Made by a program: the position numbers and the translations under genes. This document shows, one piece after another, positions 18,731 through 43,607 of a DNA stretch of 64,000 nt (position 1 is its first letter; each line of letters starts with the position of its first letter). Where the stretch lies: assembly GCA_030650425.1 (NCBI GenBank), contig JAUSED010000009.1, positions 32,904-96,903 on the forward strand. Direction: 5' to 3'. The notes beneath the pieces were generated by a model that worked only from the letters and a program-made list of their open reading frames with translations, was not told where the DNA came from and searched no databases. The stretch comes from Candidatus Omnitrophota bacterium (GTDB taxonomy: Bacteria > Omnitrophota > Gorgyraeia > Gygaellales > Profunditerraquicolaceae).

Positions 18731-18823
18731 GGGGACACAAACTAGGGGACACTTTCCTTTTGAGGCTTTCATTAGAGCCCTGACGGAAAGTGTCCCCTAG
18801 TTGTGAGTTAGGAAAGTGTCCCC
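18731..18823. repeat. Cluster of GGGGACACTTTCC / GGAAAGTGTCCCC inverted-repeat elements (intergenic copy 1)
   Basis: A partial GGGGACAC sits at 18731. A full 13-bp inverted repeat pair at 18745-57 and 18785-97 has a 27-nt spacer. An extra right arm lies at 18811-23. The spacer tail AGAGCCCTGAC is shared with the copy at 28826. Confidence 0.8.
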
Positions 18824-20644: not shown

Positions 20645-22077
20645 AATACGAACCGGTCATCGGATTAGAAGTGCATTTGCATTTAAATACTAAAACCAAG
20701 GCTTTTTGCGGCTGCTCTACGCAATTCGGCAGTGAACCCAATGCGCAAGTCTGTCCTGTATGCTTAGGTTTTCCCGGGTCACTCCCGGTTTATAACCAGA
20801 CTGCCCTGGATTATGCTATCAAAGTTGCCTTAGCCTTAAATTGCAAGGTTCAGGAACATACCAAGTTTGACCGGAAAAATTATTTTTATCCTGATTTGCC
20901 TAAAAATTACCAGATTTCACAATATGATTTGCCGCTTTCTATGCACGGGTTTCTGGATATCGAACTCGGCGGTCAAGAAAAACGCATTGGTATAACCCGG
21001 GTACATATGGAAGAGGACGCGGGAAAGCTCATTCATCAGGAAGATTGCAGCCTGGTAGATTTTAACCGCACCGGAATTCCGCTTTTAGAGATTGTCAGCG
21101 AACCGGATCTAAACTCTCCTGAGGAAGCTTATGAGTATTTATCCACCCTTAAGAGCGTCATTGAATACTTGGATGTCTCGGATTGCGATATGGAAAAAGG
21201 ATCGCTGCGCTGTGATGCCAATATATCCTTAAGGCCGGCAGGCTCAAAAACCTTAGGGGTAAAAACAGAGCTGAAGAACATGAATTCATTTAAGGGTGTA
21301 AAAGATGCCTTAGCTTTTGAGATAGGGCGTCAAAATAAATTATTGGAATCAGCAGAGACATTACTTCAAGAAACCCGGCTTTGGAATGCTAAATCTTCGG
21401 AAACACTTCCGATGCGCGTCAAAGAAGGAGCTAAGGATTACCGCTATTTTCCTGAGCCGGATTTACCCGCGCTTATAATCACGGAAAGTAAGATAGCGGA
21501 AATAAAAAATACGATTCCGGAATTACCTAAAGAAAAAATGAGACGTTTTATTAAAGATTATGGGCTGTCGGAATATGACGCGAAAGTATTAACCGCTTCC
21601 AAGTGGACAGCGCGATTCAGCGAAGAAACGATGCGTAAATTTAGCGCGGTTAATAAAAAACCGGTGGCGAATTGGATCATTGGGCCGTTAGCAGGCATAG
21701 CCGGAAATAAATCCTGTGAAATCTCCGCGCTGAGAATTTCGGCTGATCAGCTTGTGGATTTGATCGAATTAGTTGAGAAAAAACAGGTTATTTCAAACTT
21801 GACCGGCAAGGTTGTTTTGGAAGAGATGGCTAATACCGGTAAGCATCCCCAAAAAATAATCGAAGAAAAAAATTTGGCCCAGATTTCCGATTCAACCAGT
21901 TTGAATAGTGTTATTGCCGGGGTGATCAAGGAAAATCCCAAGTCTGTCGCGGATTATAAGACAGGAAAAGCGAATGCCCTGATGTTTCTGGTCGGACAGG
22001 CAATGCGTAAAAGCGCGGGAAAGGCCAACCCTAAAATGCTACAGACGTTATTAAAGGAGCGTTTGGATAGTGAATAA
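20641..22077 (+). CDS. gatB: Asp/Glu-tRNA amidotransferase subunit B
   Basis: [24 protein letters not shown] and a Zn-binding CPVC motif. Confidence 0.9.
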
Positions 22078-23269
22078 GAAAATTATCGCCTTATTAATGG
22101 TGATCATCGTGCTTTTAGCTTGTGCTACTTTGGCGATTTCCTTTGATAAGAAAAAGAGCAATGATTTGTACCGGCAGGTCGAACTTTTTTCGGATGTCTT
22201 GGCGGTTGTGGATACGGATTATGTGGATGAAGTAAAGCCAAAGGATCTGATTTATGGCGCTTTAAAAGGCATGCTCTCTTCCTTGGATCCGCACAGCCAG
22301 TTTATGGACGCGGATACTTACAATGAATTAAAATCGGATACCGAAGGGCAATTCGGCGGCTTAGGAATCGAGATCTCCTTGAAAGACGGGCTACTCACGA
22401 TCATTACGCCGATCGAGGATACTCCGGCTTGGCAGGCAGGGCTAAAAGCAGGAGACCGGATTGTGAAAGTTAATAATCAGTTAACCCGGGGAATAGACCT
22501 AAGCGAAGCGATGAAAAAGCTGCGCGGTAAACCGGGTGAAATAGTTAAGCTGACTATCTTGCGGGAGTCAGAGAAAAAGTTACTGGAGTTTTCGATTACC
22601 CGCGCAATCATCAAAATTAACGATATTAAAGAGGCGAAAGTATTGGAAGGAGGTATCGGTTATATCCGCATGTTGGAATTCAGGGATAACACTCCTAAGG
22701 ATTTTAATGCCGCGATTAAAAAGTTAGTTAAACTTAAAATGGACTCTCTGATATTGGATTTACGCAATAATCCGGGAGGAGTGCTGGAGAGCGCTTTAGA
22801 GATAACCGGAAAATTTATCCCCGAAGGGAAATTGATTGCTTATACTAAGGGCAGAAAAGAGAACCAAAATTTACAATTTAAGGCGCAAGCCAAGCATCCG
22901 ATGCTTAACTTGCCTATGGTGATATTAATCAATGAAGGGTCGGCTTCCGGAAGCGAGATTCTCGCCGGGGCATTGCAGGATTATAAACGAGCGGTAATTT
23001 TAGGGGAAAAATCTTTTGGTAAGGGCTCGGTGCAAACAGTTATACCTTTAAGCGACGGCTCGGCATTGAGATTGACGACCAGTAAATATTTTACTCCTTC
23101 GGGTAAAATTATCCATGGGAAAGGGGTTATCCCCGATCTAGTCGTAAGTAACGGGATTAAAAAAGAAAAAGATGAAGGGCCTTGGGAATACAAGTCGGAT
23201 TTACAGGTTATGGCGGCGGTCAATCTTATAAAGAAAGGGATTGCTTTGCCCCTTCGGGGCTCGCAATGA
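22070..23269 (+). CDS. ctpA: Carboxyl-terminal processing protease (S41) with a PDZ domain
   Basis: An N-terminal TM segment, a PDZ region (GLKAGDRIVKVN), and an S41 catalytic region GSASGSEIL...KGS. Confidence 0.85.
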   Translation: MNKKIIALLMVIIVLLACATLAISFDKKKSNDLYRQVELFSDVLAVVDTDYVDEVKPKDLIYGALKGMLSSLDPHSQFMDADTYNELKSDTEGQFGGLGIEISLKDGLLTIITPIEDTPAWQAGLKAGDRIVKVNNQLTRGIDLSEAMKKLRGKPGEIVKLTILRESEKKLLEFSITRAIIKINDIKEAKVLEGGIGYIRMLEFRDNTPKDFNAAIKKLVKLKMDSLILDLRNNPGGVLESALEITGKFIPEGKLIAYTKGRKENQNLQFKAQAKHPMLNLPMVILINEGSASGSEILAGALQDYKRAVILGEKSFGKGSVQTVIPLSDGSALRLTTSKYFTPSGKIIHGKGVIPDLVVSNGIKKEKDEGPWEYKSDLQVMAAVNLIKKGIALPLRGSQ

Positions 23270-23279
23270 CAGTTTTTTA

Positions 23280-24041
23280 ATGAAAAAACTTGCCACCATT
23301 ATTCTGATATTGGTTATTTTATTCGCACTAATCGCCTTTCTTACCAGAAAACCTCAGAAGGCAGTCAGCTTTAAGCCAGTGATCAAGGGAAGGATTGCTA
23401 TTGTCCTAGATGACTGGGGGTATAATTTAAATAATCTACGGAGTATAGAAGAAATAAAATATCCCCTTACCGCATCAATTTTACCTAATATTGCCTATAC
23501 CCGAAAAGTCGCTGAAGAATTACATTCGAGGGGTTTTGAAGTAATTTTACACCTGCCTATGGAGCCGGAAGAAAAGTTGAGCCTGGAAAAAAACACCATC
23601 AAAACCTCGATGGAGAAAACCCAAATTTTGAATATTCTGGATAGTGATTTGAGCAGCATTGCCTACGCTGACGGAGTATCAAATCATATGGGGTCTAAAG
23701 CGACAAGCGACTTAAAGACGATGGAAGTTATTTTTAAGGAATTAAAAAATCGGCATCTTTACTTTCTGGATAGTTTTGTAACCTCGAAGTCTGTCTGTTC
23801 GGATTTAGCGCGTAAAATTGGGCTGAGGTCATTTACGAGGGATGTATTTTTGGATAATCTGGAAGAGCGCGAGTATATCAAACAACAAATTTATAAACTT
23901 AAAGCTAAAGCAAGGGCAAAGGGATTTGCCATTGGGATAGGCCATGACCGTAAGGTTACCTTAGAGGTTTTAAGAGAGGTTATGCCGCAGATAGCCAAAG
24001 AAGGGTATAAATTTGTGTTTTTATCGGAGCTATCAAGATGA
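23280..24041 (+). CDS. Divergent polysaccharide deacetylase family protein (YibQ-like)
   Basis: A TM anchor followed by IAIVLDDWGYN and a polysaccharide deacetylase-like fold. The start is placed at the ATG at 23280, just after the ctpA stop. Confidence 0.6.
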   Translation: MKKLATIILILVILFALIAFLTRKPQKAVSFKPVIKGRIAIVLDDWGYNLNNLRSIEEIKYPLTASILPNIAYTRKVAEELHSRGFEVILHLPMEPEEKLSLEKNTIKTSMEKTQILNILDSDLSSIAYADGVSNHMGSKATSDLKTMEVIFKELKNRHLYFLDSFVTSKSVCSDLARKIGLRSFTRDVFLDNLEEREYIKQQIYKLKAKARAKGFAIGIGHDRKVTLEVLREVMPQIAKEGYKFVFLSELSR

Positions 24042-25027
24042 TTGTTCTAGGGCTTGAGACTTCCTGCGATGAGACCTCCGCGGCGGTGGTGAAAAACGGG
24101 AAGAAGATAATTTCTTGCGCGGTGGCCTCCAGCCTTGAATTCCATAAAAAATACGGAGGGGTAATTCCGGAGATTGCTTCGCGCGCTCAACTGGAAACAA
24201 TTACCGGAATCACGGATTGCGCGATACGGGAAGCGAAAATAAAATTAAGGGATATTAACTTGATTAGCGTAACCAGCGGCCCGGGGTTAATCGGTTCATT
24301 GTTAGTGGGCATTTCATTCGCCAAGGCCCTATCTTTAAGTTTAAATAAGCCATTATTGGGGATTAATCACGTCTATAGCCATTTTTACGCTAATTTCCTA
24401 AGCGGGGAAAAGATAAGATTACCATTTATGGCTTTAGTTGTTTCCGGCGGCCATACAAACTTATTTTTTGTCCGCGATTTTGATAAAATAGAGCTCCTCG
24501 GCCAGACTCAGGACGATGCCTGTGGAGAGGCCTTTGATAAAGTAGCTAAGATTCTAAATTTGGGTTACCCCGGGGGCCCAGCGATCGAGAAAATAGCCCT
24601 GCGCGGGAATCCCGATAAGATTAAATTTAATTGTTCCGGCACGAAGAATGAATTAGATTTTAGTTTTAGCGGAATTAAAACCGCCGTCTTGTATTATGTT
24701 AGAGATCGAAAGACAAAAGTCAGAAGACAGGATACTGCTGATCTTGCGGCGAGTTTTCAGGAAGCTGTCATTGATACGCTTGTGAGAAAGGCACTCTTAG
24801 CCTGCAAGTTAAAAAAAATAAACCGGTTGGTTATAGGTGGAGGGGTAGCGGCAAATAGCCGGTTAAGGGGTAAATTTAATCAAGCTGCCCGGAAATTTAA
24901 TTTAAACTGTTATTTCCCGCCAAGCTCTCTTTGTATGGATAACGCCGCGATGATCGCGGGCTTAGCATATCAACTATTTAAAAAAGGCCATTGCTCAGGC
25001 TTAGGCTTGAGCGCGGAATTAAACTAG
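24038..25027 (+). CDS. tsaD: tRNA N6-adenosine threonylcarbamoyltransferase
   Basis: LGLETSCDETSAAVV and a GGVAAN region match the Kae1/Gcp family. Confidence 0.9.
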   Translation: MIVLGLETSCDETSAAVVKNGKKIISCAVASSLEFHKKYGGVIPEIASRAQLETITGITDCAIREAKIKLRDINLISVTSGPGLIGSLLVGISFAKALSLSLNKPLLGINHVYSHFYANFLSGEKIRLPFMALVVSGGHTNLFFVRDFDKIELLGQTQDDACGEAFDKVAKILNLGYPGGPAIEKIALRGNPDKIKFNCSGTKNELDFSFSGIKTAVLYYVRDRKTKVRRQDTADLAASFQEAVIDTLVRKALLACKLKKINRLVIGGGVAANSRLRGKFNQAARKFNLNCYFPPSSLCMDNAAMIAGLAYQLFKKGHCSGLGLSAELN

Positions 25028-25047
25028 CCATTGACAAGGGGGTTAAA

Positions 25048-25497
25048 ATGCTTACAGACAGCCAAATTATTGTTCGTTTGGTACTAAGCGTAATTTTAAG
25101 CGGGTTGATTGGATTCGAAAGGCAACTGCACAAAAGGAATGCCGGGTTGCGCACGCATATTTTAGTTGCTTTGGGTTCTTGTCTTATAATGTTGACATCC
25201 ATCTATGTTTTTGATATATATAAAGATATAGCCAAGGCTGACCCGGCGCGGATTGCCGCGGGAGTAATCACCGGTATTGGGTTTTTAGGCGCGGGTACGA
25301 TTATTCGCGATAGAGAGGGAGTTAGAGGCCTTACTACCGCTGCCAGCCTTTGGGTTGTGGCAGGTATTGGTTTAGCTGCTGGATGCGGTTTTCTTAACGC
25401 GTCAGTTTACGCTACGGTTTTAGCTTTGATTGTCCTTTTCTTTTTAAGATACTTTGAGTCAATAGTTTTTAACGACGATAATGATAAGCAGCACTAA
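25048..25497 (+). CDS. MgtC/SapB family membrane protein
   Basis: VRLVLSVILSGLIGFERQ is the MgtC signature. The start is chosen at the ATG at 25048, which has an AAGGGGG RBS. Confidence 0.8.
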   Translation: MLTDSQIIVRLVLSVILSGLIGFERQLHKRNAGLRTHILVALGSCLIMLTSIYVFDIYKDIAKADPARIAAGVITGIGFLGAGTIIRDREGVRGLTTAASLWVVAGIGLAAGCGFLNASVYATVLALIVLFFLRYFESIVFNDDNDKQH

Positions 25498-25503
25498 ACA
25501 TTG

Positions 25504-25557
25504 ATACCGCACATAGTGCGGTATCAAACAAGCCATAAGCACCAGAGGTATGGCTTG
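25504..25557 (+). terminator. Two consecutive stem-loops after mgtC
   Basis: GATACCGCACATAGTGCGGTATC and CAAGCCATAAGCACCAGAGGTATGGCTTG. There is no strong U-tract, so the terminator call is tentative. Confidence 0.3.
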
Positions 25558-25573
25558 TTTGAGGAGGTGGGAT

Positions 25574-26077
25574 ATGGCTTTTAAGAAAAAGCTGGAAGAA
25601 AAGATTTTAGATGTCGATGCCTCCATGCAAGGGACATTAAGTTTTAAAGACGCGGTAAATTTACGGATTAACGGGAAATTTGAAGGCACTCTTGAAACTA
25701 AAGGGAATTTGACCATAGGCCCTACCGCGGTAGTAACCGCGGATATTAACGGTGATAATATTATTATCGGAGGCAGGGTCAGAGGGAGGATCACCGCCAG
25801 AGAGAGACTAACCATTTTACCTGCAGCTATGGTTGAGGGAGATATCTTTCCGGCTAAATTAAATATTGCTGAGGGCGCGATTTTAGAAGGCAGGTGCTGC
25901 ATGCTGCATGATTTTCTAAATGCCGAGGAGCTGGCCAGGTATCTGGAAGTTGATCTTAATTCTATCATGGAATGGGCAAATTCGGGTAAGGTCCCGGGCC
26001 ACAAAGAGGGCGATGCCTGGAAATTCGAGAGAAAGGCGATTGATTCTTGGGTAGGTTCGGGGAAGATCGATAAATAA
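25574..26077 (+). CDS. Bactofilin-domain protein fused to a C-terminal excisionase/MerR-type HTH
   Basis: Bactofilin beta-helix repeats (GNLTIGPTAVVTADINGDNIIIGGRVRGRITARERLTILPAAMVEGDI) are followed by LNAEELARYLEVDLNSIMEWANSGKVPGHKEGDAWKFERKAIDSW, an HTH_17-like domain. A GAGGAGG RBS precedes the start. Confidence 0.6.
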   Translation: MAFKKKLEEKILDVDASMQGTLSFKDAVNLRINGKFEGTLETKGNLTIGPTAVVTADINGDNIIIGGRVRGRITARERLTILPAAMVEGDIFPAKLNIAEGAILEGRCCMLHDFLNAEELARYLEVDLNSIMEWANSGKVPGHKEGDAWKFERKAIDSWVGSGKIDK

Positions 26078-26088
26078 AAAATTAAACT

Positions 26089-26397
26089 ATGAGCAATGAA
26101 AAACTTTTAACGGTAAGAGAAGTTTCCCTGCTATTAAGTATTTCGGAAAAAGAGGTGATCGATCTGGCAGAGACCGGGATTATACCGGCGTACAAGGTAG
26201 GAGGAGTTTACCTGCGTTTTAAGAGAGAACAGGTGCTGGGATACCAGAAGACACTGCGTCCGTTTACCGCTAAAGTTGAATCAGTCTCCAACAGCCCGCT
26301 CCAGGATAAAATAAGCGATTTTTTCTATTTCAACGATTTCTATATACTCTCCGCGGGCCTGATAGTTTTATTACTCGTAATCATCCTGGGGAGTTAA
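26089..26397 (+). CDS. HTH (excisionase-type) DNA-binding protein with a C-terminal transmembrane helix
   Basis: LTVREVSLLLSISEKEVIDLAETGIIPAYKVGGVYLRFKREQV is an HTH_17 domain. A hydrophobic segment LSAGLIVLLLVIILG lies at the C-terminus. Confidence 0.45.
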   Translation: MSNEKLLTVREVSLLLSISEKEVIDLAETGIIPAYKVGGVYLRFKREQVLGYQKTLRPFTAKVESVSNSPLQDKISDFFYFNDFYILSAGLIVLLLVIILGS

Positions 26398-26408
26398 ATC
26401 CAGATACA

Positions 26409-27077
26409 ATGTCTTCAAAATCCGGTTTTTGCGATTTAGGATTTGCCAAGGTGGATATAGATAGAAAGCAACGCCGTGGTTTTGCCGAAGCAATCTACTG
26501 CGCGGGTAAAACCCGGGAACATATTAAAAATATAGCCTGCCAATTGATCAAGAACAGGCAGGATGTATTGCTTACCAGATTAGATAAGCAAACCTTCGAT
26601 TATCTTAAAAAACAAATTCCCGGTTTAAAATATAATCTTTTAGCCAAGATTGGTTTTTTAACCAAGAGGCCTAGCTTAGCAAAAAAAGGATTAGTTTTAG
26701 TTATTTCAGCCGGCACGGCGGATCTGCCGGTAGCGGAAGAGGCGGCAGTAACCCTGGAGGTTATGGGTAATCGGGTAAAAAGATTGTATGATGTGGGTGT
26801 AGCGGGAGTGCATCGTATTATGCACCATGCCGGGCTTTTAAAAAAAGCTAAGGTGATTATTGTGGCTGCCGGAATGGAAGGAGCCTTAGCCAGCTTAGTC
26901 AGCGGATTGGTAAGCGTTCCTGTTGTCGCGGTTCCGACTAGTTGTGGATACGGCGCAAGTTTCGCCGGGCTTTCCGCGTTATTGACGATGCTCAATAGCT
27001 GTTCTCCGGGAATTGCTACGGTGAATATCGATAACGGTTTCGGCGCCGGATATTTTGCCAGTTTGGTAAATAAATGA
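26409..27077 (+). CDS. larB: LarB-like PurE-family carboxylase (nickel-pincer nucleotide cofactor biosynthesis)
   Basis: An N-terminal LGFAKVDIDRKQRRGFAEAIYCAGKT region plus a PurE-like domain ending NIDNGFGAGYFA, as in LarB. Confidence 0.6.
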   Translation: MSSKSGFCDLGFAKVDIDRKQRRGFAEAIYCAGKTREHIKNIACQLIKNRQDVLLTRLDKQTFDYLKKQIPGLKYNLLAKIGFLTKRPSLAKKGLVLVISAGTADLPVAEEAAVTLEVMGNRVKRLYDVGVAGVHRIMHHAGLLKKAKVIIVAAGMEGALASLVSGLVSVPVVAVPTSCGYGASFAGLSALLTMLNSCSPGIATVNIDNGFGAGYFASLVNK

Positions 27078-27475
27078 TTTCATTAAAAGAAGCTATAAAA
27101 TTTCATGGGCATCTTGGGCCATATTTAATTTTGGGGATTATAGCCGGAAATTTAGGCTTAAAGAAGTTAGGCGTTAAGAAATATTTTGATTTGCGGGTTT
27201 TGGTTTACGGAGCAAATAAAAAACCAAAATCTTGCCTGATTGACGGTTTGCAGTTATCCACCGGAGCTACCTATGGGAAGGGGAACATTCAAAAATACGC
27301 GGCTAAGGAAATAAAGATAGTCATCCGGAATTTAAAAAACAATAAGGCTGTTATTATCACTTTGGGAGAATTCTTAGAGGAAAGACTAGCTGCTTTAAAA
27401 GGCCATAGCGACTCGGAAAATTTCGCTAAGGGATTATTAAAATCAGATTATCGCGAAATATTTAGATTAAACTAA
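27074..27475 (+). CDS. FwdE/FmdE-domain protein (small, Cys-less variant)
   Basis: FHGHLGPYLILG corresponds to the FHGHxCPG motif of the formylmethanofuran dehydrogenase subunit E family, with Cys replaced by Leu. It overlaps the larB stop. Confidence 0.5.
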   Translation: MISLKEAIKFHGHLGPYLILGIIAGNLGLKKLGVKKYFDLRVLVYGANKKPKSCLIDGLQLSTGATYGKGNIQKYAAKEIKIVIRNLKNNKAVIITLGEFLEERLAALKGHSDSENFAKGLLKSDYREIFRLN

Positions 27476-27488
27476 GGAGAATATAACC

Positions 27489-28817
27489 ATGGCTTTGTCA
27501 GGTTTGGATATTTATAAGTTGCTTCCTAAAACAAATTGCCGCGAATGCGGTTTTGCTACTTGTTTAGCTTTCGCTATGCAACTGGCCAAGAAAGCTGTTG
27601 GTATTGATAAATGTCCGCATTTGACCTCTGAAGTAAAGGGAAAGTTAGAAGCGCAATCCCAGCCGCCGATAAAATTAATTACCATTGGCTCAGGAGAAAC
27701 GCGATTAGAGATCGGGAATGAAAATGTGATGTTCAGGCATGAAGAAAAATTTTTCCGGCCTGCCGGAATCGGTTTTATAGTTGAGGATAATTCTACGGAC
27801 GCCGAAATTAAAACCAAGATAGAAAAAATCAATGAACTAAAATTTGAGCGCGTCGGCCAGCGTTTAGAGGTTAATCTCGTAGCCATAAGGCAGAATAAGG
27901 ATGCCAAAAGATTTATTGACGTTGTTCAGCTTGTATCAGTAAACACTCCTTTAAGCCTGGTCTTGATGAGCCCTGATGCGCAAGCCTTAAAAGGGGCTTT
28001 GGAGATTTTAAAAGGCAGGAACCCTTTAATTTATCATGCTACCAAAGAAAATTTAACCGCGCTTACGCAGCTAGCCAAGGATTACAAGGTACCCTTAGTT
28101 GCTCAAGGTGACGATCTTGAGAAAGTCAGCGAATTAACAGCTGAGCTTTCGAAACAAGGTGTAAATGATTTAATTATAGAGACTGGTAAAAAGCCGATAT
28201 CCGAAAAGGTATGGGATCTGACTCAAATTAGAAGGCTTGCTTTAAAAAAATCTAACCGCGGCCTTGGCTATCCTTCTTTAGTTGTGGTTGAGCAGAATGA
28301 TGTTTACGCGGAGGCGCAAGAAGCGGCAACCTATATTACAAAATACGCCGGGATTGTTTTGCTTAAAGGAATCGAGTCTTGGGCTGTTTTGTCGCTTTTG
28401 ACCTTGCGGCAAAATATTTATACTGATCCGCAAAAACCGCTTCAGATCGAACCTAAGCTTTATCCGATAGGGCAGGTAAACGATAAGTCTCCGGTTTTAG
28501 TCACGACTAATTTTTCACTTTCATATTATACTGTTTTGGGGGAAGTGGAGGCAAGTAAGATTCCCGCGTATATTATCAGTATAGATACAGAAGGAATGTC
28601 AGTATTGACTGCTTGGGCTGCGGAAAAATTTACCCCTCAAAAGATTAACGAATCGATAAACAAATTCGGGGTAAAGGACGCGATTTCGCATAAGCGCTTG
28701 GTTATTCCCGGGTATGTCGCGGTAATGAGCGGAGAGTTGCAGGACGAATCAGGATTTGAAATTATCGTCGGGCCGAAAGAAGCGGCAGGAATACCATCAT
28801 TTTTGAAGAATTTATAA
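27489..28817 (+). CDS. acsC: Corrinoid iron-sulfur protein large subunit (acetyl-CoA decarbonylase/synthase gamma)
   Basis: The N-terminal [4Fe-4S] motif LPKTNCRECGFATCLAFAMQLA, TIM-barrel and corrinoid-binding regions. The length of 442 aa is typical. Confidence 0.85.
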   Translation: MALSGLDIYKLLPKTNCRECGFATCLAFAMQLAKKAVGIDKCPHLTSEVKGKLEAQSQPPIKLITIGSGETRLEIGNENVMFRHEEKFFRPAGIGFIVEDNSTDAEIKTKIEKINELKFERVGQRLEVNLVAIRQNKDAKRFIDVVQLVSVNTPLSLVLMSPDAQALKGALEILKGRNPLIYHATKENLTALTQLAKDYKVPLVAQGDDLEKVSELTAELSKQGVNDLIIETGKKPISEKVWDLTQIRRLALKKSNRGLGYPSLVVVEQNDVYAEAQEAATYITKYAGIVLLKGIESWAVLSLLTLRQNIYTDPQKPLQIEPKLYPIGQVNDKSPVLVTTNFSLSYYTVLGEVEASKIPAYIISIDTEGMSVLTAWAAEKFTPQKINESINKFGVKDAISHKRLVIPGYVAVMSGELQDESGFEIIVGPKEAAGIPSFLKNL

Positions 28818-28825
28818 CTACGCTA

Positions 28826-28877
28826 GGGGACACTTTCCTTTAGCAGCTTAGTAAGAGCCCTGACGGAAAGTGTCCCC
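28826..28877. repeat. GGGGACACTTTCC-26 nt-GGAAAGTGTCCCC inverted-repeat element (intergenic copy 2)
   Basis: It has the same 13-bp arms and the same AGAGCCCTGAC spacer tail as the copy at 18745-18797. It lies between acsC and the RACo gene. Confidence 0.8.
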
Positions 28878-28901
28878 TGATAGTGCCCTGTAGTGTGAGA
28901 T

Positions 28902-30806
28902 ATGAACAAATTTAAAGTTACCTTTCAACCGAATAATAAAACCGTCGAGGTACCCAAAGATACGACGGTTCTTTCGGCAGCGATCTCTTGCGGAGTGTCT
29001 ATAAAGTCGGATTGCGGAGGGGACGGGGTCTGCGGCAGGTGTAAGGTTGTGGTAAAGAAGGGTGAGGTTTTAACTCAGCCCACAGGAATGCTTAATGATG
29101 AAGAGAGAAAACGTAATATATACCTAGCTTGTATTACTACTATACATAGCGATTTGGAAGTAGAGGTTCTACCTGAATCAAGAATTGATCCAAGTTCCAG
29201 GCTTAAAGGTATTTATTCGAAATCCGAAGAGATAGAATCGAAAGAAGCAGTTTCAAGCGATAAAGTATTCAAACACTCGCCACTATCCACAAAATTATAT
29301 CTTGAGTTACCCCCGCCAAATTTGAATGATACAGCCAGCGACTTAGACAGGCTTTTTCGCGCTATTCGTAAAGCGCAGGACCTGCCGGTTATGCAAACAG
29401 GTTTAAGCAATATCCGGCAGCTCGGAGAATTATTACGCGGCTGCGAATGGAAAGTGACCGTTACTTTAGGCAAGAGAAATGATACGGTAGAGGTTGTCTT
29501 GGTTGAACCGCAGGATACCTCGAACAAAAATTTCGGGGTATGTTTTGACATCGGCACTACCACTATCTCCGGCCAGCTTGTGGATTTAAATTCCAAAAAG
29601 ATATTGGGGACTAAGGCGACCTATAATCAGCAAGCGAGCTTTGGTTCGGATGTAATCACGCGCATAATCTACGCGCGGCAGAACGAAGGAATCGAAAAAC
29701 TGCACAGCGCGGTAACCGGGACGATGAACCTGATGATTAAAGAGCTTACCGTTGAACATAAAGTGAATTTAAATGACCTGACTTGCGTTGTTTGTACCGG
29801 AAATACGACAATGATCCATTTATTGCTTCTGGTGGACCCTACTTATATAAGGCGTGAGCCGTATGTACCGACGGCGAATTTCCTGCCGGTTTTAAGGGCT
29901 TCCGAAGCAGGGATCATCATTAATCCTCGCGGGCTTTTAGCATGCGTACCGGGTGTATCAAGTTATGTCGGAGGAGACACTACCGCCGGGGTTCTTTCCA
30001 GCGGCCTCTACAATGAAACTGATCTGTGCATTCTGATTGATATAGGCACTAATGGAGAAATTGCCCTCGGGAATAAGGATTTTTTGGTTGCCTGCGCGGC
30101 TTCCGCCGGCCCGGCGTTTGAAGGAAGCGGAGTAAGCTGCGGTATGCGGGCCTCAAACGGCGCAATCCAAAAGGTTAAGATAAGCCCCAAAGACTTCTCA
30201 GTAACCTGTTCGACGATCGGTGAAGCTAAGCCTCGCGGCATATGCGGTTCCGGATATATCGATTTAATCGCCCAGATGCTTGAAACAGGCGTAATAGATA
30301 GAGGCGGGAAAATTAAATTGGAAAACCATAAACGCGTGCGTGATTCCGAATCCGGGAAAGAATTTGTGCTGGTTTTTAAAGAAGACTCGGCTTCTTCGAA
30401 AGATATAGTTATTAACGAAGCGGATATAGAAAACTTAAAACGCGCCAAGGCCGCGATTTATTCGGCTACCGCTGTTTTAGTCAAGCATATGAATTTTATG
30501 CTTGACGATGTTAAGAAGATCTTTATCGCCGGCGGATTTGGCACATCTTTGGATATAGAGAGCGCGATAAAGATAGGGCTGCTTCCCGATCTTGTAAGAA
30601 GCAAGTTTGTGTTTATCGGTAATAGCGCTTTAGCGGGTGCCCGTCAGATGCTTCTATCGGCAGAGGCAACAAAGTTGGCGGAGGAGATAGCGCGTAAGAT
30701 CACCTACTTTGAATTATCCGTTGATTCCGGATATATGGATGAATATATGGCGGCTTTGTTTTTCCCGCATACGGATTTAAATAGATTCAGGCCGCGGGAT
30801 AAATAA
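28902..30806 (+). CDS. Reductive activator of corrinoid iron-sulfur protein (RACo): 2Fe-2S ferredoxin plus ASKHA ATPase
   Basis: An N-terminal plant-type ferredoxin (CGGDGVCGRCKV) and a C-terminal ASKHA-fold domain (DIGTTTISGQL, DIGTNGEI). The length is 634 aa. Confidence 0.8.
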   Translation: MNKFKVTFQPNNKTVEVPKDTTVLSAAISCGVSIKSDCGGDGVCGRCKVVVKKGEVLTQPTGMLNDEERKRNIYLACITTIHSDLEVEVLPESRIDPSSRLKGIYSKSEEIESKEAVSSDKVFKHSPLSTKLYLELPPPNLNDTASDLDRLFRAIRKAQDLPVMQTGLSNIRQLGELLRGCEWKVTVTLGKRNDTVEVVLVEPQDTSNKNFGVCFDIGTTTISGQLVDLNSKKILGTKATYNQQASFGSDVITRIIYARQNEGIEKLHSAVTGTMNLMIKELTVEHKVNLNDLTCVVCTGNTTMIHLLLLVDPTYIRREPYVPTANFLPVLRASEAGIIINPRGLLACVPGVSSYVGGDTTAGVLSSGLYNETDLCILIDIGTNGEIALGNKDFLVACAASAGPAFEGSGVSCGMRASNGAIQKVKISPKDFSVTCSTIGEAKPRGICGSGYIDLIAQMLETGVIDRGGKIKLENHKRVRDSESGKEFVLVFKEDSASSKDIVINEADIENLKRAKAAIYSATAVLVKHMNFMLDDVKKIFIAGGFGTSLDIESAIKIGLLPDLVRSKFVFIGNSALAGARQMLLSAEATKLAEEIARKITYFELSVDSGYMDEYMAALFFPHTDLNRFRPRDK

Positions 30807-30807
30807 T

Positions 30808-31560
30808 ATGGGGTGGGTTATAGCGATGGCGGGTAAGGGTGGAACAGGTAAGACTACTGTCGCAGCCCTGCTTGTGCGTATAATTAAAGAAAATAATCTT
30901 GGCTCGATTCTAGCGGTTGATGCAGACCCAAATAGTAATCTTGGCGAATTATTGGGTTTGGAGGCAAAAGAAAGCATCGGCTGTATACTCGATGATATAG
31001 CCAGTAATCCGCAAATCGTTCCCGTTAATATGGGTAAGGACGCTTTTATCGAATACCGCGTTCAGCGCTCGATAATCGAGGCGGATGGCTTTGATCTTTT
31101 GACGATGGGCAGGCCTGAGGGCCCGGGCTGCTATTGTTATGTAAATAACTCCCTGCGTAATGTTATGGATAGGCTGATCAATGACTATGATTTTGTGGTC
31201 ATTGATAATGAAGCGGGGTTAGAACATTTATCCCGGCGCACTACCAGACGGGTGGATACTTTATTGGTTATTTCGGATGCCTCTATTATAGGCCTAAAAG
31301 CAGCGAAAAGAATCGTTGAGTTGACCAAAGAGCTGAAAATTAAAACTAAAAAAGAACTCTTAGTGGTTAACCGAAGCAACCCAAATATTGAACCGGATAA
31401 AATTAAAGGTTTAAACTTGGATTACTTGGGCCGCTTACCCATAGATTCTGAGGTTGAAAGTTTAAGTAAGTTGGGGGCATCGTTGGTGAATTTAAATAAA
31501 GATAGCGCGATGCTAAGTACTTTACGAAAACTAGGAGAAAAGATATGGCTTTGCAATTAA
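30808..31560 (+). CDS. cooC: CooC/AcsF-type nickel-insertion ATPase (MinD family)
   Basis: Deviant Walker A AMAGKGGTGKTT and the CooC-specific CYCYV motif. Confidence 0.8.
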   Translation: MGWVIAMAGKGGTGKTTVAALLVRIIKENNLGSILAVDADPNSNLGELLGLEAKESIGCILDDIASNPQIVPVNMGKDAFIEYRVQRSIIEADGFDLLTMGRPEGPGCYCYVNNSLRNVMDRLINDYDFVVIDNEAGLEHLSRRTTRRVDTLLVISDASIIGLKAAKRIVELTKELKIKTKKELLVVNRSNPNIEPDKIKGLNLDYLGRLPIDSEVESLSKLGASLVNLNKDSAMLSTLRKLGEKIWLCN

Positions 31561-32486
31561 TCACGGAAAAGTGGTCAGGCGAAGTTTCGGTAGTCACTAT
31601 CGGCGCGGCTAATCAGGAGGGTGGAACACGTTCCCACGCGGTAAAGATCGGTGGGGAGAAATCGCTTCCTTACTTGTTCAAAGAAGGAAGTCTTCCGAAT
31701 AAGCCTCAGATTGCCTTTGAAATTTTAGATATCATGCCTAGTGATTGGCCTAATGCAGTTAGCGCTCCCTATGGTAAAACTTTAAATGATCCTTTGGAAT
31801 GGGCGGATAAATGTGTGCGGGATTATCAAGCCGGTATTTTATGCGTTAGATTACTTGGATCTCATCCGGATTTCGGAAATAAATCTCCTGAAGAAGAAGC
31901 GCAGCTGATTAAGAAATTATTAAAAAAAGTGAGCGTACCTTTAGTTATTTTAGGAAGCGGAGATGACGCTAAAGACAATCTTGTTTTACCGGCTATATCC
32001 GAAGCAGCCAAAGGTGAGCGTTGTCTAATCGGTTCAGCGGTACAGGATAATTATAAAACTATTGTGGCCAGCGTTTTAGCCGACGGGCATAATATCATTG
32101 CCGAATCCCCGATAGATATTAATATCGCCAAGCAGTTGAATATTTTGATTTCGGATATGGGGCTGGCTTTGGAACGTATTGTGATGAATCCTACCATTGG
32201 GGCTTTAGGTTACGGGTTGGAATACGCCTATTCGATTATGGAGCGTTCCCGCCTTGCCGCGCTGGCAGGAGATAAGACTATGGCTTCTCCATTTATCTGT
32301 TTTGTGGGACAGGAGGCCTGGAGGGCTAAAGAAGCTAAGGCGGATGATTTGCCTGATCAGGGGATAATCTGGGAAACACTGACCGCGACGGCCTTAATTC
32401 AGGCAGGCGCTGATTTATTAGTTATGCGGCATCCTAAGGCGGTTGAAAAAGTAAAAGAATATATAGATAATTTATTCCGGAGTTAA
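31545..32486 (+). CDS. acsD: Corrinoid iron-sulfur protein small subunit (acetyl-CoA decarbonylase/synthase delta)
   Basis: It is about 310 aa with a TIM-barrel small-subunit pattern. It is adjacent to acsC and acsE. Confidence 0.75.
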   Translation: MALQLITEKWSGEVSVVTIGAANQEGGTRSHAVKIGGEKSLPYLFKEGSLPNKPQIAFEILDIMPSDWPNAVSAPYGKTLNDPLEWADKCVRDYQAGILCVRLLGSHPDFGNKSPEEEAQLIKKLLKKVSVPLVILGSGDDAKDNLVLPAISEAAKGERCLIGSAVQDNYKTIVASVLADGHNIIAESPIDINIAKQLNILISDMGLALERIVMNPTIGALGYGLEYAYSIMERSRLAALAGDKTMASPFICFVGQEAWRAKEAKADDLPDQGIIWETLTATALIQAGADLLVMRHPKAVEKVKEYIDNLFRS

Positions 32487-32489
32487 AAT

Positions 32490-33278
32490 ATGTTGATCAT
32501 CGGTGAGTTGATTAATGGGATGTACGCTAATATCGGTAAAGCGATTAAGGAGCGCGCTAAAGCCGAAATCCAGAAATGCGCCTTGGAGCAGATAGAAAGC
32601 GGAGCAGACGCTTTAGATATTAATTGCGGCCCGGCATCAAAGCAACCGCTTATCGATATGCCGTGGTTGGTTGAAAGCGTGCAAGAGGTGACGGATAAAC
32701 CGTTGTGCCTGGATTCAAGCAAGCCGCAGGTTATTGAAGTTGGCCTTGAGGCGGCAAGGAATAAAACGATTATTAATTCGGTTACAGCGGACCCGGAAAA
32801 GTTAGATGTGATTATTCCGTTAGCCAAGAAATATAATTCCCAGCTTATCGGGATTACCATCAGTAAAAAAGGTATCCCGCAGAATAAAGACCAGCGCCTC
32901 GAATTAGCCGCGGCGATTGTGGCCAGCTGCGCGGAAAAAGATTTTCCTGTTGACAACTTGTTCCTTGATCCGATAGTCCTTCCGGTGAATGTCGCTCAGG
33001 CGCAGCTAAAAGATATTTTAGAGTCAATCCGCGATTTTAAGATAATCTCCGAGCCTTCCCCTAAAACGACTTTAGGATTGAGCAATGTTTCGCAAGGCAC
33101 AAACGTCAGGAGCCTGATTAACCGGACCTTTCTTACAATGGCTATCGCCTATGGCTTGGATTCGGCTATATTAGACCCTAAAGATAAAGAGTTGATGGAT
33201 GCCTTGATTACCGCCGAGCTTATTTTGAATAAACACATTTATTGCGATTCGTATTTAGACGCTTATAAGAAAAAGTGA
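32490..33278 (+). CDS. acsE: Methyltetrahydrofolate:corrinoid/iron-sulfur protein methyltransferase
   Basis: A pterin-binding (DHPS-like) barrel with GADALDINCGP. The 262 aa length matches AcsE. Confidence 0.8.
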   Translation: MLIIGELINGMYANIGKAIKERAKAEIQKCALEQIESGADALDINCGPASKQPLIDMPWLVESVQEVTDKPLCLDSSKPQVIEVGLEAARNKTIINSVTADPEKLDVIIPLAKKYNSQLIGITISKKGIPQNKDQRLELAAAIVASCAEKDFPVDNLFLDPIVLPVNVAQAQLKDILESIRDFKIISEPSPKTTLGLSNVSQGTNVRSLINRTFLTMAIAYGLDSAILDPKDKELMDALITAELILNKHIYCDSYLDAYKKK

Positions 33279-33293
33279 ATTTGAGTTAGTTAT

Positions 33294-33370
33294 GGCGGCG
33301 TAACTCAGCCTGATAGAGTAGTCGGCTCATACCCGATTTGTCGCTGGTTTAAATCCAGCCGCCGCCACCA
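33294..33370 (+). tRNA. tRNA-Met or tRNA-Ile2 (anticodon CAT) with an encoded CCA; atypical D and T loops
   Basis: Acceptor stem GGCGGCG/CGCCGCC, anticodon loop CTCATAC. The D-loop lacks GG18-19 and the T-loop is TTTAAAT with no C56. The G1-C72 pair argues against an initiator tRNA. Confidence 0.7.
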
Positions 33371-33409
33371 AATTTTTTATATAAAATTTTAAACTAATCA
33401 GGATCCCGA

Positions 33410-34399
33410 ATGAATAAGAAAGGCGAGGCTAAAGAAGCCGGGTATGGTTTGGTTCTGCAGGAGCTGCAGGAAAACCCCTACAGGAAATTTAATCTCGCCT
33501 TTTCTTTAATGGTTATTTTGCCTTTCCTTGTATTTTTGTACATATTAGTAAGTAAGTTATTTACTTTAAACATACTTATCGGCAATATCGGCATCGTATT
33601 GCTTATCGCGCTTTTTATTTCAATTTGCGGATTTTTAATCGGCGTCAGAATTTTAAAGAATATTTTAAAAAAACTCATCGCGCTTGCCGCGCAAGCAAAG
33701 CATAGTGATCAGTTGAAATCGACTTTTGTGGCTACGGTATCGCACGAACTAAAAAACCCTCTTACTTCTATTAAAACTAATATTTATAATATCTCCGCGG
33801 GGTTTACCGGAGAGGTTAATCTAGAGCAAAAGAATATCCTTGGGCTTTGTCAGGATACAATTGATCGTATGAGCAGGCTGGTAAACGATTTGCTGGATTT
33901 ACATAAGATCGAAGCCGGAATGACCGATGTAAATAGAAAGCCTTGCAATGTCATAGAATTATCAGAGAAGCAGATTAGGGAGTTAGGGGTTGTAGCTGGG
34001 GCAAGGAATATCCAGATCGTTAAGGAATTTTCAGATACAAAGCTAACGGTATGGGCTGATGAAGACAAATTGGCGCGGGTAATTAATAACCTTTTGAGCA
34101 ATGCGATAAAATTTACTCCCGAAGCAGGAATTGTAACTTTAAAGGTTTATCCCGCTGATAATTTCGCCAGAATCGAATGTATAGACACCGGAACAGGAAT
34201 AGAAGCGGATAACCTGGAAAAGATTTTTAGTAAATTCGAGCGGTTAAATTCCGTAAAAGAAGGCACTGGATTGGGTTTGGCTATCTCCAAGGATATCGCG
34301 GAAATGCATAGGGGTAAAATTCTCGTAGAAAGCGAAATCGGGAAAGGAAGTAAGTTTATTCTGCTTTTACCCCGCGACCTTAGAGGAAGGGGCAGATAA
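33410..34399 (+). CDS. Sensor histidine kinase (2 TM, HisKA + HATPase_c)
   Basis: H-box VSHELKNPLTSI, and N/G1/G2 boxes (NLLSNAIKFT, DTGTGI, GTGLGLAI). Confidence 0.8.
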   Translation: MNKKGEAKEAGYGLVLQELQENPYRKFNLAFSLMVILPFLVFLYILVSKLFTLNILIGNIGIVLLIALFISICGFLIGVRILKNILKKLIALAAQAKHSDQLKSTFVATVSHELKNPLTSIKTNIYNISAGFTGEVNLEQKNILGLCQDTIDRMSRLVNDLLDLHKIEAGMTDVNRKPCNVIELSEKQIRELGVVAGARNIQIVKEFSDTKLTVWADEDKLARVINNLLSNAIKFTPEAGIVTLKVYPADNFARIECIDTGTGIEADNLEKIFSKFERLNSVKEGTGLGLAISKDIAEMHRGKILVESEIGKGSKFILLLPRDLRGRGR

Positions 34400-34401
34400 A
34401 T

Positions 34402-34785
34402 ATGACGAATGAAAGAAACGCTAAAAAAATCTTAATCGTGGAGGATGGGAAAGAATTGTTGTTAAGCTTGTCAATTTTGCTAAAATCCCAGGGTTATTTG
34501 ACTATTGGCGCGCCTGACGCCCTCTTCGGTATAAGCCTTGCTCACAAAGAAAGGCCGGATTTGATCATTCTGGATTTGGGCTTGCCCGCGGGAGGAGGAT
34601 TTTATGTTTTAGAGAGCATTAACGATTCTATTGAAACTAATGATATACCAGTCATGATTTTGACCGGACAGCAGGGAATAGAACTGGAAGAAAAAGCCCG
34701 GAAGATGGGGGTAGCGGCGTATCTGCATAAGCCTTTTGAGCCTAAAGAGCTGCTCAGCCGGGTTAAGGAAATTTTGGATAGATAG
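34402..34785 (+). CDS. Single-domain response regulator (CheY-like receiver)
   Basis: ILIVEDGKE...DLIILDLGLP and a KPF motif, with no output domain. Confidence 0.8.
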   Translation: MTNERNAKKILIVEDGKELLLSLSILLKSQGYLTIGAPDALFGISLAHKERPDLIILDLGLPAGGGFYVLESINDSIETNDIPVMILTGQQGIELEEKARKMGVAAYLHKPFEPKELLSRVKEILDR

Positions 34786-37360: not shown

Positions 37361-39190
37361 ATGGCTAAGAAAAATGGTTTCAAACGTTCTCAGTTTGGTT
37401 GGATACTAGGGATTATTATTTTTTTTGTGATTATAAATTCCTTGAGTATTCCCGCGGGTGGAATACCCAAGGAAACTACTTACGGTAATTTTTATTCCAT
37501 CCTGAAGAATAATCCGGAAAAAATCAAATCCGTAACCAAAGTCGAAGCCGTGCTGCAAGGTGAATTTACGGATAATTCCAAATTTTTGGTGAATATTCCG
37601 GAGAATGACACTGAGTTGCTCAATCTTTTACGTCAGAATGTGAGGGCTTTTGATGTTAAGCCTCAGCGCACCTTCTGGACATCTTTACTTTTTAACCTGG
37701 GCCCAATACTGCTTCTTATATTTTTCTGGTGGATGATGGCTGCCCGGGGAGAGCAGCTGGGTAATAAGATTATGACTTTTGGTAAAGCTGTCCCTAAGAT
37801 ACACAGCGGCACGGAAAAGGTAACTTTTAACGACGTGGCCGGTGTGGATGAAGCCAAGGAAGAGTTAAAAGAAGTAATCGAATTTTTAAAAGATCCTAAA
37901 AGATTCCAAAAACTGGGAGGGAAAATCCCTAAGGGAGTGCTGCTGGTGGGGCCGCCGGGCTGCGGGAAAACCTTGATTGCCAAGGCTGTAGCCGGAGAAG
38001 CGGGAGTTCCCTTTTTCTCAATTAGCGGCTCGGATTTTGTCGAAATGTTTGTGGGCGTAGGCGCCAGCCGCGTCCGGGATTTATTTGATCAGGGAAGGCG
38101 CGCGTCCAAGGTATCGGGTAAAGGCGCGATTATTTTTATCGACGAGATTGACGCGGTCGGCCGCCTGCGTTTTTCCGGCATCGGCGGAGGCCATGATGAA
38201 CGCGAACAGACATTGAACGCGCTTTTAGTGGAGATGGATGGTTTTGACAGTTTAAAAGGGTTAATTCTGATTGCCGCGACTAACCGGCCGGATACTTTAG
38301 ATCCGGCTTTACTGCGTCCGGGAAGATTTGACCGCACGATTATTGTAAGCTTCCCTGATATCAAAGGGAGGGAAGAAATTCTTAGAGTCCACACCCGTAA
38401 GATTAAGCTTGATCCGTCCGTTGACCTAAAATCAATCGCCTCGCAGACTCCCGGTTTTTCCGGAGCGGACTTGGCAAACTTATGCAACGAAGCCGCGCTG
38501 CTTGCCGCCAGAAACAGCAAAGAAATGGTTGAGGAATCTGATCTCGATAAGTCGGTTGAGCGGGTATTGATGGGGCCTGAAAAGAAGAGCCATATTATCT
38601 CTAAAAAAGAGAAAGAGATCACTGCTTTCCATGAGTCAGGGCACGCGTTACTATCGTTAATCTTGCCCGAAGTAAACCCTTTAAAAAAGGTTTCCATTAT
38701 TCCCAGGGGCTTAGCCGGCGGTTATACTTTTACCCCGCCGCTGGAAGACAGGCATTATTGGACAAAGAGAGAGTTAATCGCTGAAATCACCATGATGCTG
38801 GGAGGCCGCGCTTCCGAAGAGGTTAATTTGACGGAAGTAACTACCGGCGCGCAGAATGATCTTGAAATGGCCACCGGAATGGCTCGACGCATGGTTACTC
38901 AATTTGGGATGTCGGAAAAATTAGGGAATATAACTTTGGGACGCAGGGAAGGCCTGGTTTTTCTGGGTAAAGACATTATGGAAGAAAAAAATTACAGCGA
39001 TGAGACCGCGCGCTTAATCGATGAAGAGGTAAGGCAAATAGTTGAAGGTGCTTACGTAAAGGCGAAGAACCTGTTGCAACAGAACGCGGGTAAGTTAAAA
39101 ATATTAGCCGGTACTCTTATTGAAAAAGAAGTGATGAGCGGAGATGACGTCAAGCGCCTGTTGGGGATAGAAAAATCCGACCTTGCCTAA
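37361..39190 (+). CDS. ftsH: ATP-dependent zinc metalloprotease FtsH
   Basis: Two TM segments, an AAA domain ([23 protein letters not shown]), and zinc motif HESGHAL. Confidence 0.95.
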
Positions 39191-43272: not shown

Positions 43273-43290
43273 TTTGAAAATATAAATAAA

Positions 43291-43578
43291 GGGTAGGTAC
43301 CCAAGTGGCCAAAGGGGGCAGACTGTGTAAACGCAGCGTCATGTCGAAAGGCGTGATGGAAAAGTAGGTGAATTCAGGGAACCCCTTAGTATATCTTTAC
43401 TGAGGGCAATCCTGAGCCAAGCCCGCCAATTTTATACGGCGGGAAGGTGCAGAGACTAAGCGCCTACCACCTAAAGCTTACAGCTATGGTGATGAGATAG
43501 TCCAAGCCTCAAGGTAACTTGAGGGCTCTTGAAATCTGCTGCACTTGTGCTTCAGAGGTTCGAATCCTCTCCTGCCCA
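43291..43578 (+). tRNA. tRNA-Tyr (anticodon GTA) interrupted in the anticodon loop by a group I intron
   Basis: Exon 1 at 43291-43326 gives acceptor GGGTAGG, a class-II 3-bp D-stem, and anticodon stem GCAGA plus CTGT. Exon 2 at 43532-43578 gives AAA, TCTGC, a long variable arm hairpin, T-arm AGAGG-TTCGAAT-CCTCT, and acceptor CCTGCCC. The spliced loop is CTGTAAA. Confidence 0.8.
43327..43531 (+). ncRNA. Group I intron (subgroup IC3-like, 205 nt) inside the tRNA-Tyr anticodon loop
   Basis: P1 pairs exon CTGT with internal guide sequence GCAG, giving a U·G wobble at the 5' splice site. It ends in G before exon 2. The core GGAAGGTGCAGAGACTAAGCGCCTACCACCTAAAGC...CTATGG...GATAGTCC closely resembles the R and S (P7) elements and 3' core of the Azoarcus tRNA-Ile intron. 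No ORF is present. Confidence 0.8.
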
Positions 43579-43607
43579 TTAAAATTTTCCGACAAGGAAA
43601 ATTTTAA
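43579..43607 (+). other. Perfect 12-bp stem-loop immediately 3' of tRNA-Tyr
   Basis: TTAAAATTTTCC-GACAA-GGAAAATTTTAA. A second hairpin with the same GACAA loop, CAGCCC-GACAA-GGGCTG, lies at 43641-43657. Confidence 0.5.

Follow-up and report, generated by a model that had tools for sequence, protein, structure and literature searches.

A module of seven co-directional genes, larB, an fmdE-like gene, acsC, the RACo gene acsV, a cooC-type gene, acsD and acsE, spans positions 26409-33278 of a 64-kb stretch of DNA (hereafter the window) from a Candidatus Omnitrophota bacterium. Very probably the locus represents the corrinoid and methyl-transfer part of a Wood-Ljungdahl pathway whose genes, in one clade of Candidatus Omnitrophota, have come to lie in two clusters. 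The identities of the genes, a gene order conserved throughout the clade and the existence, in the same family, of complementary clusters with an orphan acsB are matters of observation. That the metagenome-assembled genome (MAG) of the window carries the second cluster I infer, as I do the direction of carbon flow. Since one class of locus ends at acsB while the other begins at acsC, the break is placed between these two genes, and, as far as gene order can tell, the simplest reading appears to be that a single ancestral operon was split there.

To assess the conservation of the arrangement, one genome for each GTDB species was searched with AcsC. This returned 80 loci, whose open reading frames (ORFs) were called and matched to the window proteins. 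Fifty-one species-representative loci share the housekeeping context of the window, with HTH17 and/or larB immediately 5' of acsC. Where the flanking sequence suffices, the fuller order reads gatA-gatB-ctpA-deacetylase-tsaD-mgtC-bactofilin/HTH-HTH17-(larB)-(fmdE)-acsC-RACo-(cooC)-acsD-acsE-(tilS-ftsH), and two independently annotated loci confirm the succession gatA...acsE...ftsH. AcsB or CooS is encoded within 10 kb in the flanks of none of the 51 loci, 35 of which have at least 8 kb upstream of acsC. The gene larB is found in 49 of them; in two species the acs module is present here but larB is not. The slot between larB and acsC contains fmdE in 29 loci and the gene for LarC (PF01969) in two (L055 and L062); it is empty in the rest, and in several of the empty-slot species larB lies within 1-2 bp of acsC. 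A cooC gene is present in 37 of the 44 loci that span the RACo-acsD junction, and its product keeps the Walker A and CxC motifs in 37/37. Named relatives place the related loci in the class Velamenicoccia (GTDB Koll11), order Gygaellales (GIF10): UBA1562, which has the larB-fmdE-acsC arrangement, belongs to the family Profunditerraquicolaceae/UBA6249, and GWF2_43_52 to UBA12090.

Other Omnitrophota carry a canonical operon, cooC-cooS-cooF-FNOR-acsB-acsC-RACo-cooC-acsD-acsE, examples being L054 (on the complete chromosome CP070780.1), L059, L073, L085 and L086; neither larB nor fmdE occurs in the canonical operons examined. When AcsB from a canonical operon was used as a query against metagenome contigs, 41 AcsB loci with at least 3 kb of downstream sequence were recovered, of which 24 run into acsC and 17 do not. 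The acsC-less loci encode a clade of 726-residue AcsB proteins that are about 75% identical to one another and at most 72% identical to canonical AcsB. In the three NCBI/JGI-annotated loci of this class that cover the whole region (L167, L168 and L172) the order is trmD-rplS-rnhB-UPF0102-fhs-fchA-folD-(208 aa)-metF-cooS-cooF-FNOR-acsB-(TPR)-polA-glgA-coaE-rho-rpmE-prfA; on shorter orphan-acsB contigs (L169-L171 and L173) only the cooS/FNOR-acsB-(TPR)-polA part is visible. One of the annotated loci, L167, comes from SM23_72 (GCA_001304135.1), a member of Profunditerraquicolaceae and hence of the same family as UBA1562 (L011), which is of the larB type.

Three further observations concern these clusters. 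Most of the split-type catalytic clusters have no cooC upstream of cooS. A third arrangement is seen at L033:2528-5476 and L050:9315-11332, where acsC-acsV-cooC-acsD-acsE follows trpC-trpF with neither larB nor acsB upstream; given this arrangement, more than one relocation of the acs module seems to have taken place. Finally, a LAGLIDADG intein (PF14890 and PF14528) interrupts AcsB in several Omnitrophota and in an Aerophobetes MAG, bringing the protein to 1170-1275 residues as against 725 (L054:6164-9991 on CP070780.1, L056 and L081; proteins P0139, P0140, P0143, P0146, P0147, P0201, P0219 and P0226).

The original prediction had recognized both subunits of the corrinoid iron-sulfur protein (CFeSP), RACo, CooC and AcsE in the window, and profile and structure matches bear these assignments out (Table 1; the window proteins carry NCBI accessions MDO8662564 to MDO8662624). 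Residues 1-441 of AcsC align over their full length with residues 1-441 of the Carboxydothermus hydrogenoformans CFeSP structure 2h9a (E 3e-134), and the protein has the expected succession of 4Fe-4S domain, TIM barrel and B12 domain; together with AcsD it qualifies as a CFeSP. RACo displays all four Pfam domains of the reductive activator (E 1e-13 to 1e-101), and it scores 675 bits against the NCBIfam 'exception' model NF040756, under the 800-bit cut-off of that model. The CooC-type ATPase has the two motifs of the CooC/AcsF type, a Walker A motif (GKGGTGKTT) and a C-Y-C motif (GPGCYC). Among solved structures the closest is CooC1 (3kje, E 5e-21), whose CxC lines up with that of the window protein; the latter passes no curated family model and matches generic P-loop models only, all below or near their cut-offs. 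AcsE passes the curated model specific for the methyltransferase MeTr. Its NCBI label, 'dihydropteroate synthase' (MDO8662597.1), is wrong, the true FolP being encoded at 39190-40407.

Table 1. Genes of the module and neighbouring elements discussed in the text, in window coordinates.
Feature	Position	Strand	Evidence
larB	26409..27077	+	NCBIfam NF033503, 286.6 bits (cut-off 175); NCBI name LarB, MDO8662591.1
Single-domain FmdE-family gene, 133 aa	27074..27475	+	PF02663, 64.1 bits (cut-off 22.9)
acsC, CFeSP large subunit	27489..28817	+	NF003195, 568 bits (cut-off 306); PF04060 and PF03599
acsV/RACo, ATP-dependent reductive activator of corrinoid protein	28902..30806	+	Fer2, RACo_linker, Raco_middle, RACo_C_ter
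CooC/AcsF-type P-loop ATPase, nickel-insertion accessory protein	30808..31560	+	Walker A and CxC motifs; closest structure 3kje
acsD, CFeSP small subunit	31545..32486	+	NF003376, 405.8 bits (cut-off 280); PF03599
acsE, methyltetrahydrofolate:corrinoid/iron-sulfur protein methyltransferase	32490..33278	+	NF005719, 308.9 bits (cut-off 259); PF00809
tRNA-Met (CAT), downstream edge of module	33294..33370	+	ARAGORN, Rfam
Histidine kinase and response regulator pair, downstream of tRNA-Met	33410-34785		
Palindromic element, acsC-acsV spacer	28826..28877	.	Perfect 13-bp inverted repeat GGGGACACTTTCC / GGAAAGTGTCCCC, 26-nt loop
Second palindrome copy, extra arm	18745..18823	.	Shares loop AGAGCCCTGAC with the copy at 28826
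Third palindrome copy, different loop	36121..36167	.	Same arms

A Pfam run on 57 of the long ORFs of the window gave no acsB, cooS, larC, fhs, folD or metF, and the catalytic domains of carbon monoxide dehydrogenase/acetyl-CoA synthase (CODH/ACS; PF03598, PF19436 and PF03063) were found in 0/57. Among these ORFs, then, there is no complete acs operon, and the predicted absence of acsA/cooS and acsB is borne out. Neither acsA nor acsB lies directly upstream of larB, a position in which either would have contradicted the original prediction: the 26 kb upstream inside the window consist of housekeeping genes. The neighbours in the window as a whole are of this kind, namely gatAB, ctpA, tsaD, mgtC, tilS, ftsH, folP, aromatic amino-acid genes and tRNA synthetases. 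Downstream, the module runs into a tRNA and then a two-component system, as had been described. A promoter and terminator scan of the region from 24.9 to 34.9 kb yielded sites no more frequent than in shuffled sequence and hence no operon boundaries, and, apart from the flanking tRNA-Met, the Rfam search detected neither riboswitches nor other known RNAs in the module or its surroundings. Taken by itself, this CFeSP/RACo/CooC/MeTr module is well conserved and ordinary, and the finding too is largely an ordinary one.

Two further genes stand in front of acsC. LarB aligns with the Lactiplantibacillus plantarum protein (7mj0/8soq) over residues 9-222 (E ~1e-68) and retains the catalytic Cys221 (L. 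plantarum numbering) in an 'LNSC' motif; judged by its sequence it is a true LarB. By orthology it would act as pyridinium-3,5-biscarboxylic acid mononucleotide synthase, the enzyme of the first step of nickel-pincer cofactor synthesis. Its gene overlaps the fmdE-like gene by 4 bp, and 13 bp separate the latter from acsC. However, the whole 15-kb segment from 19190 to 34785 is an unbroken co-directional array of functionally unrelated genes spaced by -37 to +84 bp. Because the array packs unrelated genes this tightly, the adjacency of larB and acsC, and even an overlap of start and stop codons, says little about shared function. The placement of larB beside acsC is most likely positional, not functional. 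The gene probably occupied the site already, as shown by larB-larC in two species, an arrangement suggesting that lar genes held the site independently of the acs module. In described lar clusters, larB stands with larC, larE and larA or other users of the cofactor (PMC13524815), and the same source describes an active search in which new nickel-pincer-dependent enzymes are being discovered through lar gene neighbourhoods. The window resembles these clusters in its LarB orthologue, and two related loci do so in their larB-larC pair, but in the window larB stands alone beside unrelated genes: the scanned ORFs include no larC, no LarA homologue and no AKR-type user, and Pfam, without a LarE-specific model having been run, pointed to no family suggesting LarE. 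The pairing of LarB with an FmdE-like protein had been called unusual. It is real and conserved, but less telling than it seemed, given the long array of unrelated genes and the absence of FmdE from about 40% of the related loci.

Two statements about the FmdE-like protein itself have to be corrected. The gene had been described as Cys-less, with the cysteine of FHGHxCPG replaced by Leu. In phmmer searches the protein matches 2gvi and 2glz, and its motif reads FHGH-L-G-P where 2gvi has FHGH-K-C-P, so that Leu sits at the variable position and it is Gly that replaces the first cysteine; the alignment to 2gvi also shows that the second metal-ligand cysteine, C54 (SCLIDGLQ), is retained. Among 120 homologues, F10, H11, G12, H13, G15, P16, C54, D57, Q60 and other residues are invariant (120/120), and H111 is kept in 116. 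The four-ligand His-x-His-x-Cys...Cys site is thus incomplete in this group: the first cysteine is Gly in 120/120 close homologues, and both His and the second Cys are kept. The AlphaFold (AF2) model (pLDDT 91.9) matches folds of the FmdE family only (2gvi, 2glz and 3d00; Foldseek probability 1.00, TM 0.75-0.78), and the fold is that of the family. A profile search of 1.84 billion representatives gave 1103 relatives, of which 397 reached an E-value of 1e-10 or lower, and FHGHxG is carried by 133 of the best 150 representatives. The change from Cys to Gly therefore marks a large subfamily and not decay or a peculiarity of the window gene. Some members of the FHGHxG subfamily are fused at the C terminus to an inosine-uridine nucleoside hydrolase domain (P0441, P0450, P0505, P0514 and P0464), to an ABC ATPase (P0426) or to an ECF S component (P0416).

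Structures of the FmdE/FwdE family (PF02663; 2glz, 2gvi and 3d00) bind Zn or Ni at a His-His-Cys-Cys site, with mixed Zn/Ni occupancy in 2glz and, in 2gvi, an unidentified ligand attached to the cysteine equivalent to the one retained here (PMC2954224). The window protein shares with them the fold, the two His, the second Cys and the Asp/Gln motif, and it is single-domain like 2glz; it differs in having Gly as the first Cys ligand, in lacking a zinc finger and in having no link to formylmethanofuran dehydrogenase, no fmd or fwd genes having been found in the scanned window ORFs or in the related loci. The FmdE-like protein is likely to bind a metal or a ligand.

Several observations weigh against a split operon, or at least against its extension to the window. 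SM23_72, which ties the orphan-acsB cluster to the family, is a heavily contaminated bin. The assemblies that provide split-type AcsB contexts (JAQTTO, JAQTUM, JAQUPI, JBDRAV, JBGGHK and LJUU, with one JGI record) are all absent from the list of larB-type loci, and a comparison of 10 AcsB proteins (five with NCBI accessions) with 10 FmdE proteins revealed no shared assembly; in the comparisons made, the two clusters were never linked to one assembly, nor to the window MAG. The cooC gene is deleted in seven larB-type species (L008, L011, L028, L030, L032, L045 and L051), leaving gaps of 14-325 bp. Lastly, genes that are co-expressed and share a function could equally show the tight or overlapping junctions of larB-fmdE-acsC. 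One might suppose instead that AcsCD, AcsE and RACo form a free-standing shuttle that carries methyl groups between methyltetrahydrofolate (methyl-THF) and another methyltransferase or acceptor in a genome devoid of acetyl-CoA synthase. Such a shuttle would account for the lack of acsB and cooS from the scanned window ORFs, over 26 kb upstream and 30 kb downstream, and from the 10-kb flanks of the 51 related loci; it also draws on the loss of cooC in the seven relatives and on the fact that acsB is assigned to the window MAG through its relatives. It is nevertheless highly improbable. Complementary acsB clusters lacking acsCDE exist in the same family, and AcsB-E are reported from these families in passages of PMC10066038. 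CooC has intact motifs in 37 of the 44 loci in which it could be sought, AcsC is full length and close to CFeSP structures coupled to ACS, and no alternative methyltransferase is encoded nearby. The original prediction had left the choice between catalytic genes located elsewhere and another role for the CFeSP; the separate acsB clusters of the relatives and the AcsB-E literature favour the former, which would hold for the window MAG by extension.

The junctions raise the different question of whether LarB and the FmdE-like protein serve the module, for instance as a nickel route feeding CooC and the A-cluster. The 4-bp overlap, the 13-bp gap, the larB-acsC distances of 1-2 bp in several species and the adjacency of larB to the module in 49/51 loci are all compatible with such accessories, as are the Zn/Ni sites of FmdE-family structures (PMC2954224) and the presence in one array of three nickel-related genes, larB, the fmdE-like gene and cooC. 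This is very unlikely all the same, as adjacency is little informative in an array where unrelated genes are packed this closely, canonical acs operons do without larB and fmdE both in Omnitrophota and elsewhere, and at this site larB is missing in two species and fmdE in about 20. The substrate of LarB, nicotinic acid adenine dinucleotide (NaAD), is moreover well defined and unrelated to CFeSP/ACS. A separate possibility is that the FmdE-like protein goes with LarB and not with acs: binding nickel or a cofactor, it would take part alongside LarB in the synthesis or delivery of the nickel-pincer nucleotide and sit in the slot of LarC. That slot holds FmdE (29 loci) or LarC (the two loci mentioned), never both; the stop/start overlap with larB is frequent; His11, His13 and Cys54 are invariant; ligand and metal are bound by the equivalent residues in 2gvi and 2glz (PMC2954224); and members of the subfamily occur as fusions with a nucleoside hydrolase domain or with parts of ECF/ABC transporters. 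With only two LarC cases, a link examined within Omnitrophota, about 17 loci in which larB is present and the slot empty, and a literature search that found no paper mentioning both FmdE and LarB, this partnership is unlikely. The more specific version, in which the FHGHLGP subfamily would be an unrecognised LarB partner in nickel-pincer nucleotide metabolism, a small carrier or chaperone whose invariant His-His-Cys site would hold either nickel or the thiocarboxylated pyridinium intermediate, is distinctly unlikely. If it were true, FmdE would take the place of LarC beside larB, and the nucleoside hydrolase and ECF/ABC fusions would point to salvage or uptake of pyridinium nucleosides. A role of the subfamily alongside LarB is a legitimate, if weakly supported, lead; its wider interest lies in the conserved, often overlapping larB-fmdE pair and in the size of a subfamily that has kept a three-ligand metal site.

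Under a split of the operon, the ancestral gene set would have had acsB followed directly by acsC-acsV-cooC-acsD-acsE. The five downstream genes would now lie between the HTH gene with larB on one side and tilS-ftsH on the other, within a co-directional housekeeping run, while fhs-fchA-folD-metF-cooS-cooF-FNOR-acsB would have stayed together at a second site by trmD-rplS and polA. From established knowledge of the families, AcsE would transfer methyl between CH3-THF and the corrinoid of AcsCD in its Co(I) state, with RACo using ATP to return Co(II) to that state. AcsCD would exchange the methyl group with the A-cluster of AcsB, the gene for which would lie elsewhere, and CooC would mature the nickel site of ACS and/or CODH. 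Selection on CooC, the motifs of which are intact in 37/37 orthologues, implies a CODH or ACS target.

The arrangement is best compared with the acs operon of acetogens (cooC-acsA-acsB-acsC-acsV-acsF-acsD-acsE in Moorella thermoacetica and C. hydrogenoformans). The five downstream genes are in identical order, AcsC matches C. hydrogenoformans 2h9a over its full length and CooC is nearest to CooC1 (3kje); in contrast, the window module is cut between acsB and acsC, it has larB and the FmdE-like gene upstream in a housekeeping array, and its catalytic half would lie elsewhere. An acs/CFeSP set used without the full pathway has a precedent in Dehalococcoides mccartyi, the subject of Zhuang et al. 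2014, whose Wood-Ljungdahl pathway is reportedly incomplete, acetyl-CoA being cleaved to supply methyl-THF. CODH and MetF are said to be missing from its genome. The clusters of the relatives of the window differ in carrying both cooS and metF, and their pathway therefore appears complete apart from formate dehydrogenase. An origin of the module from Dehalococcoides was weighed and dismissed. A CODH-less pathway was likewise rejected for the split-cluster relatives that can be read, in which cooS lies in the second cluster. Passages of Seymour et al. 2023 (PMC10066038) describe a partial or complete Wood-Ljungdahl pathway in the Omnitrophota classes Velamenicoccia and Gorgyraia, with AcsB-E, accompanied or not by CooS/F, in the families of the named relatives (Profunditerraquicolaceae and UBA12090). 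These passages give gene presence, and neither they nor the supplementary tables searched mention the two-cluster layout, the larB/FmdE neighbours or the breakpoint. In practice, when an 'orphan' CFeSP module is met, the genome should be checked for a second cluster before the pathway is called incomplete or repurposed; if the genes are divided at one fixed breakpoint, as they appear to be, annotation by modules could mis-score the Wood-Ljungdahl pathway of a fragmented MAG as partial.

The spacer between acsC and acsV contains a palindromic element that had been taken for a hairpin repeat inserted there, a view supported both by the other copies of the repeat and by a gap wider than in relatives. 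The arms have 7 matches in the window against 1.06 expected, a number reached in 0/100 shuffles, and the copies sit in intergenic spacers. The gap amounts to 84 bp in the window; in 25/46 related loci the two genes overlap or have no more than 12 bp between them. As gaps in relatives are short and the motif was found in 0/175 related loci fetched, the palindrome would be a small dispersed element inserted recently and in this species only, and it appears, from its sequence features, to be of the REP/MITE (repetitive extragenic palindrome/miniature inverted-repeat transposable element) kind. The RNA hairpin of 28826-28877 is predicted to fold with -38.1 kcal/mol (z = -5.8) and has no U tract; in the absence of this tract a function as intrinsic terminator was rejected.

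Some features of the window lie outside the module. Large ORFs are located just upstream of gatA, one at 12594-15377 (+; 927 aa, with a TPR match only) and one at 15468-18716 (-; 1082 aa, with no Pfam match), and relatives have a large unannotated gene at the same position (1102 aa in L002, 1069 aa in L003). A bacterial class A RNase P RNA is found at 249-730 (124.9 bits). Between tRNA-Thr and tRNA-Gly lies a gene resembling tRNA-Tyr(GUA) (43290-43600) that ARAGORN did not call; its variable arm is long, and its anticodon loop is broken by a group I intron at 43333-43524 (Rfam RF00028, 89.9 bits).

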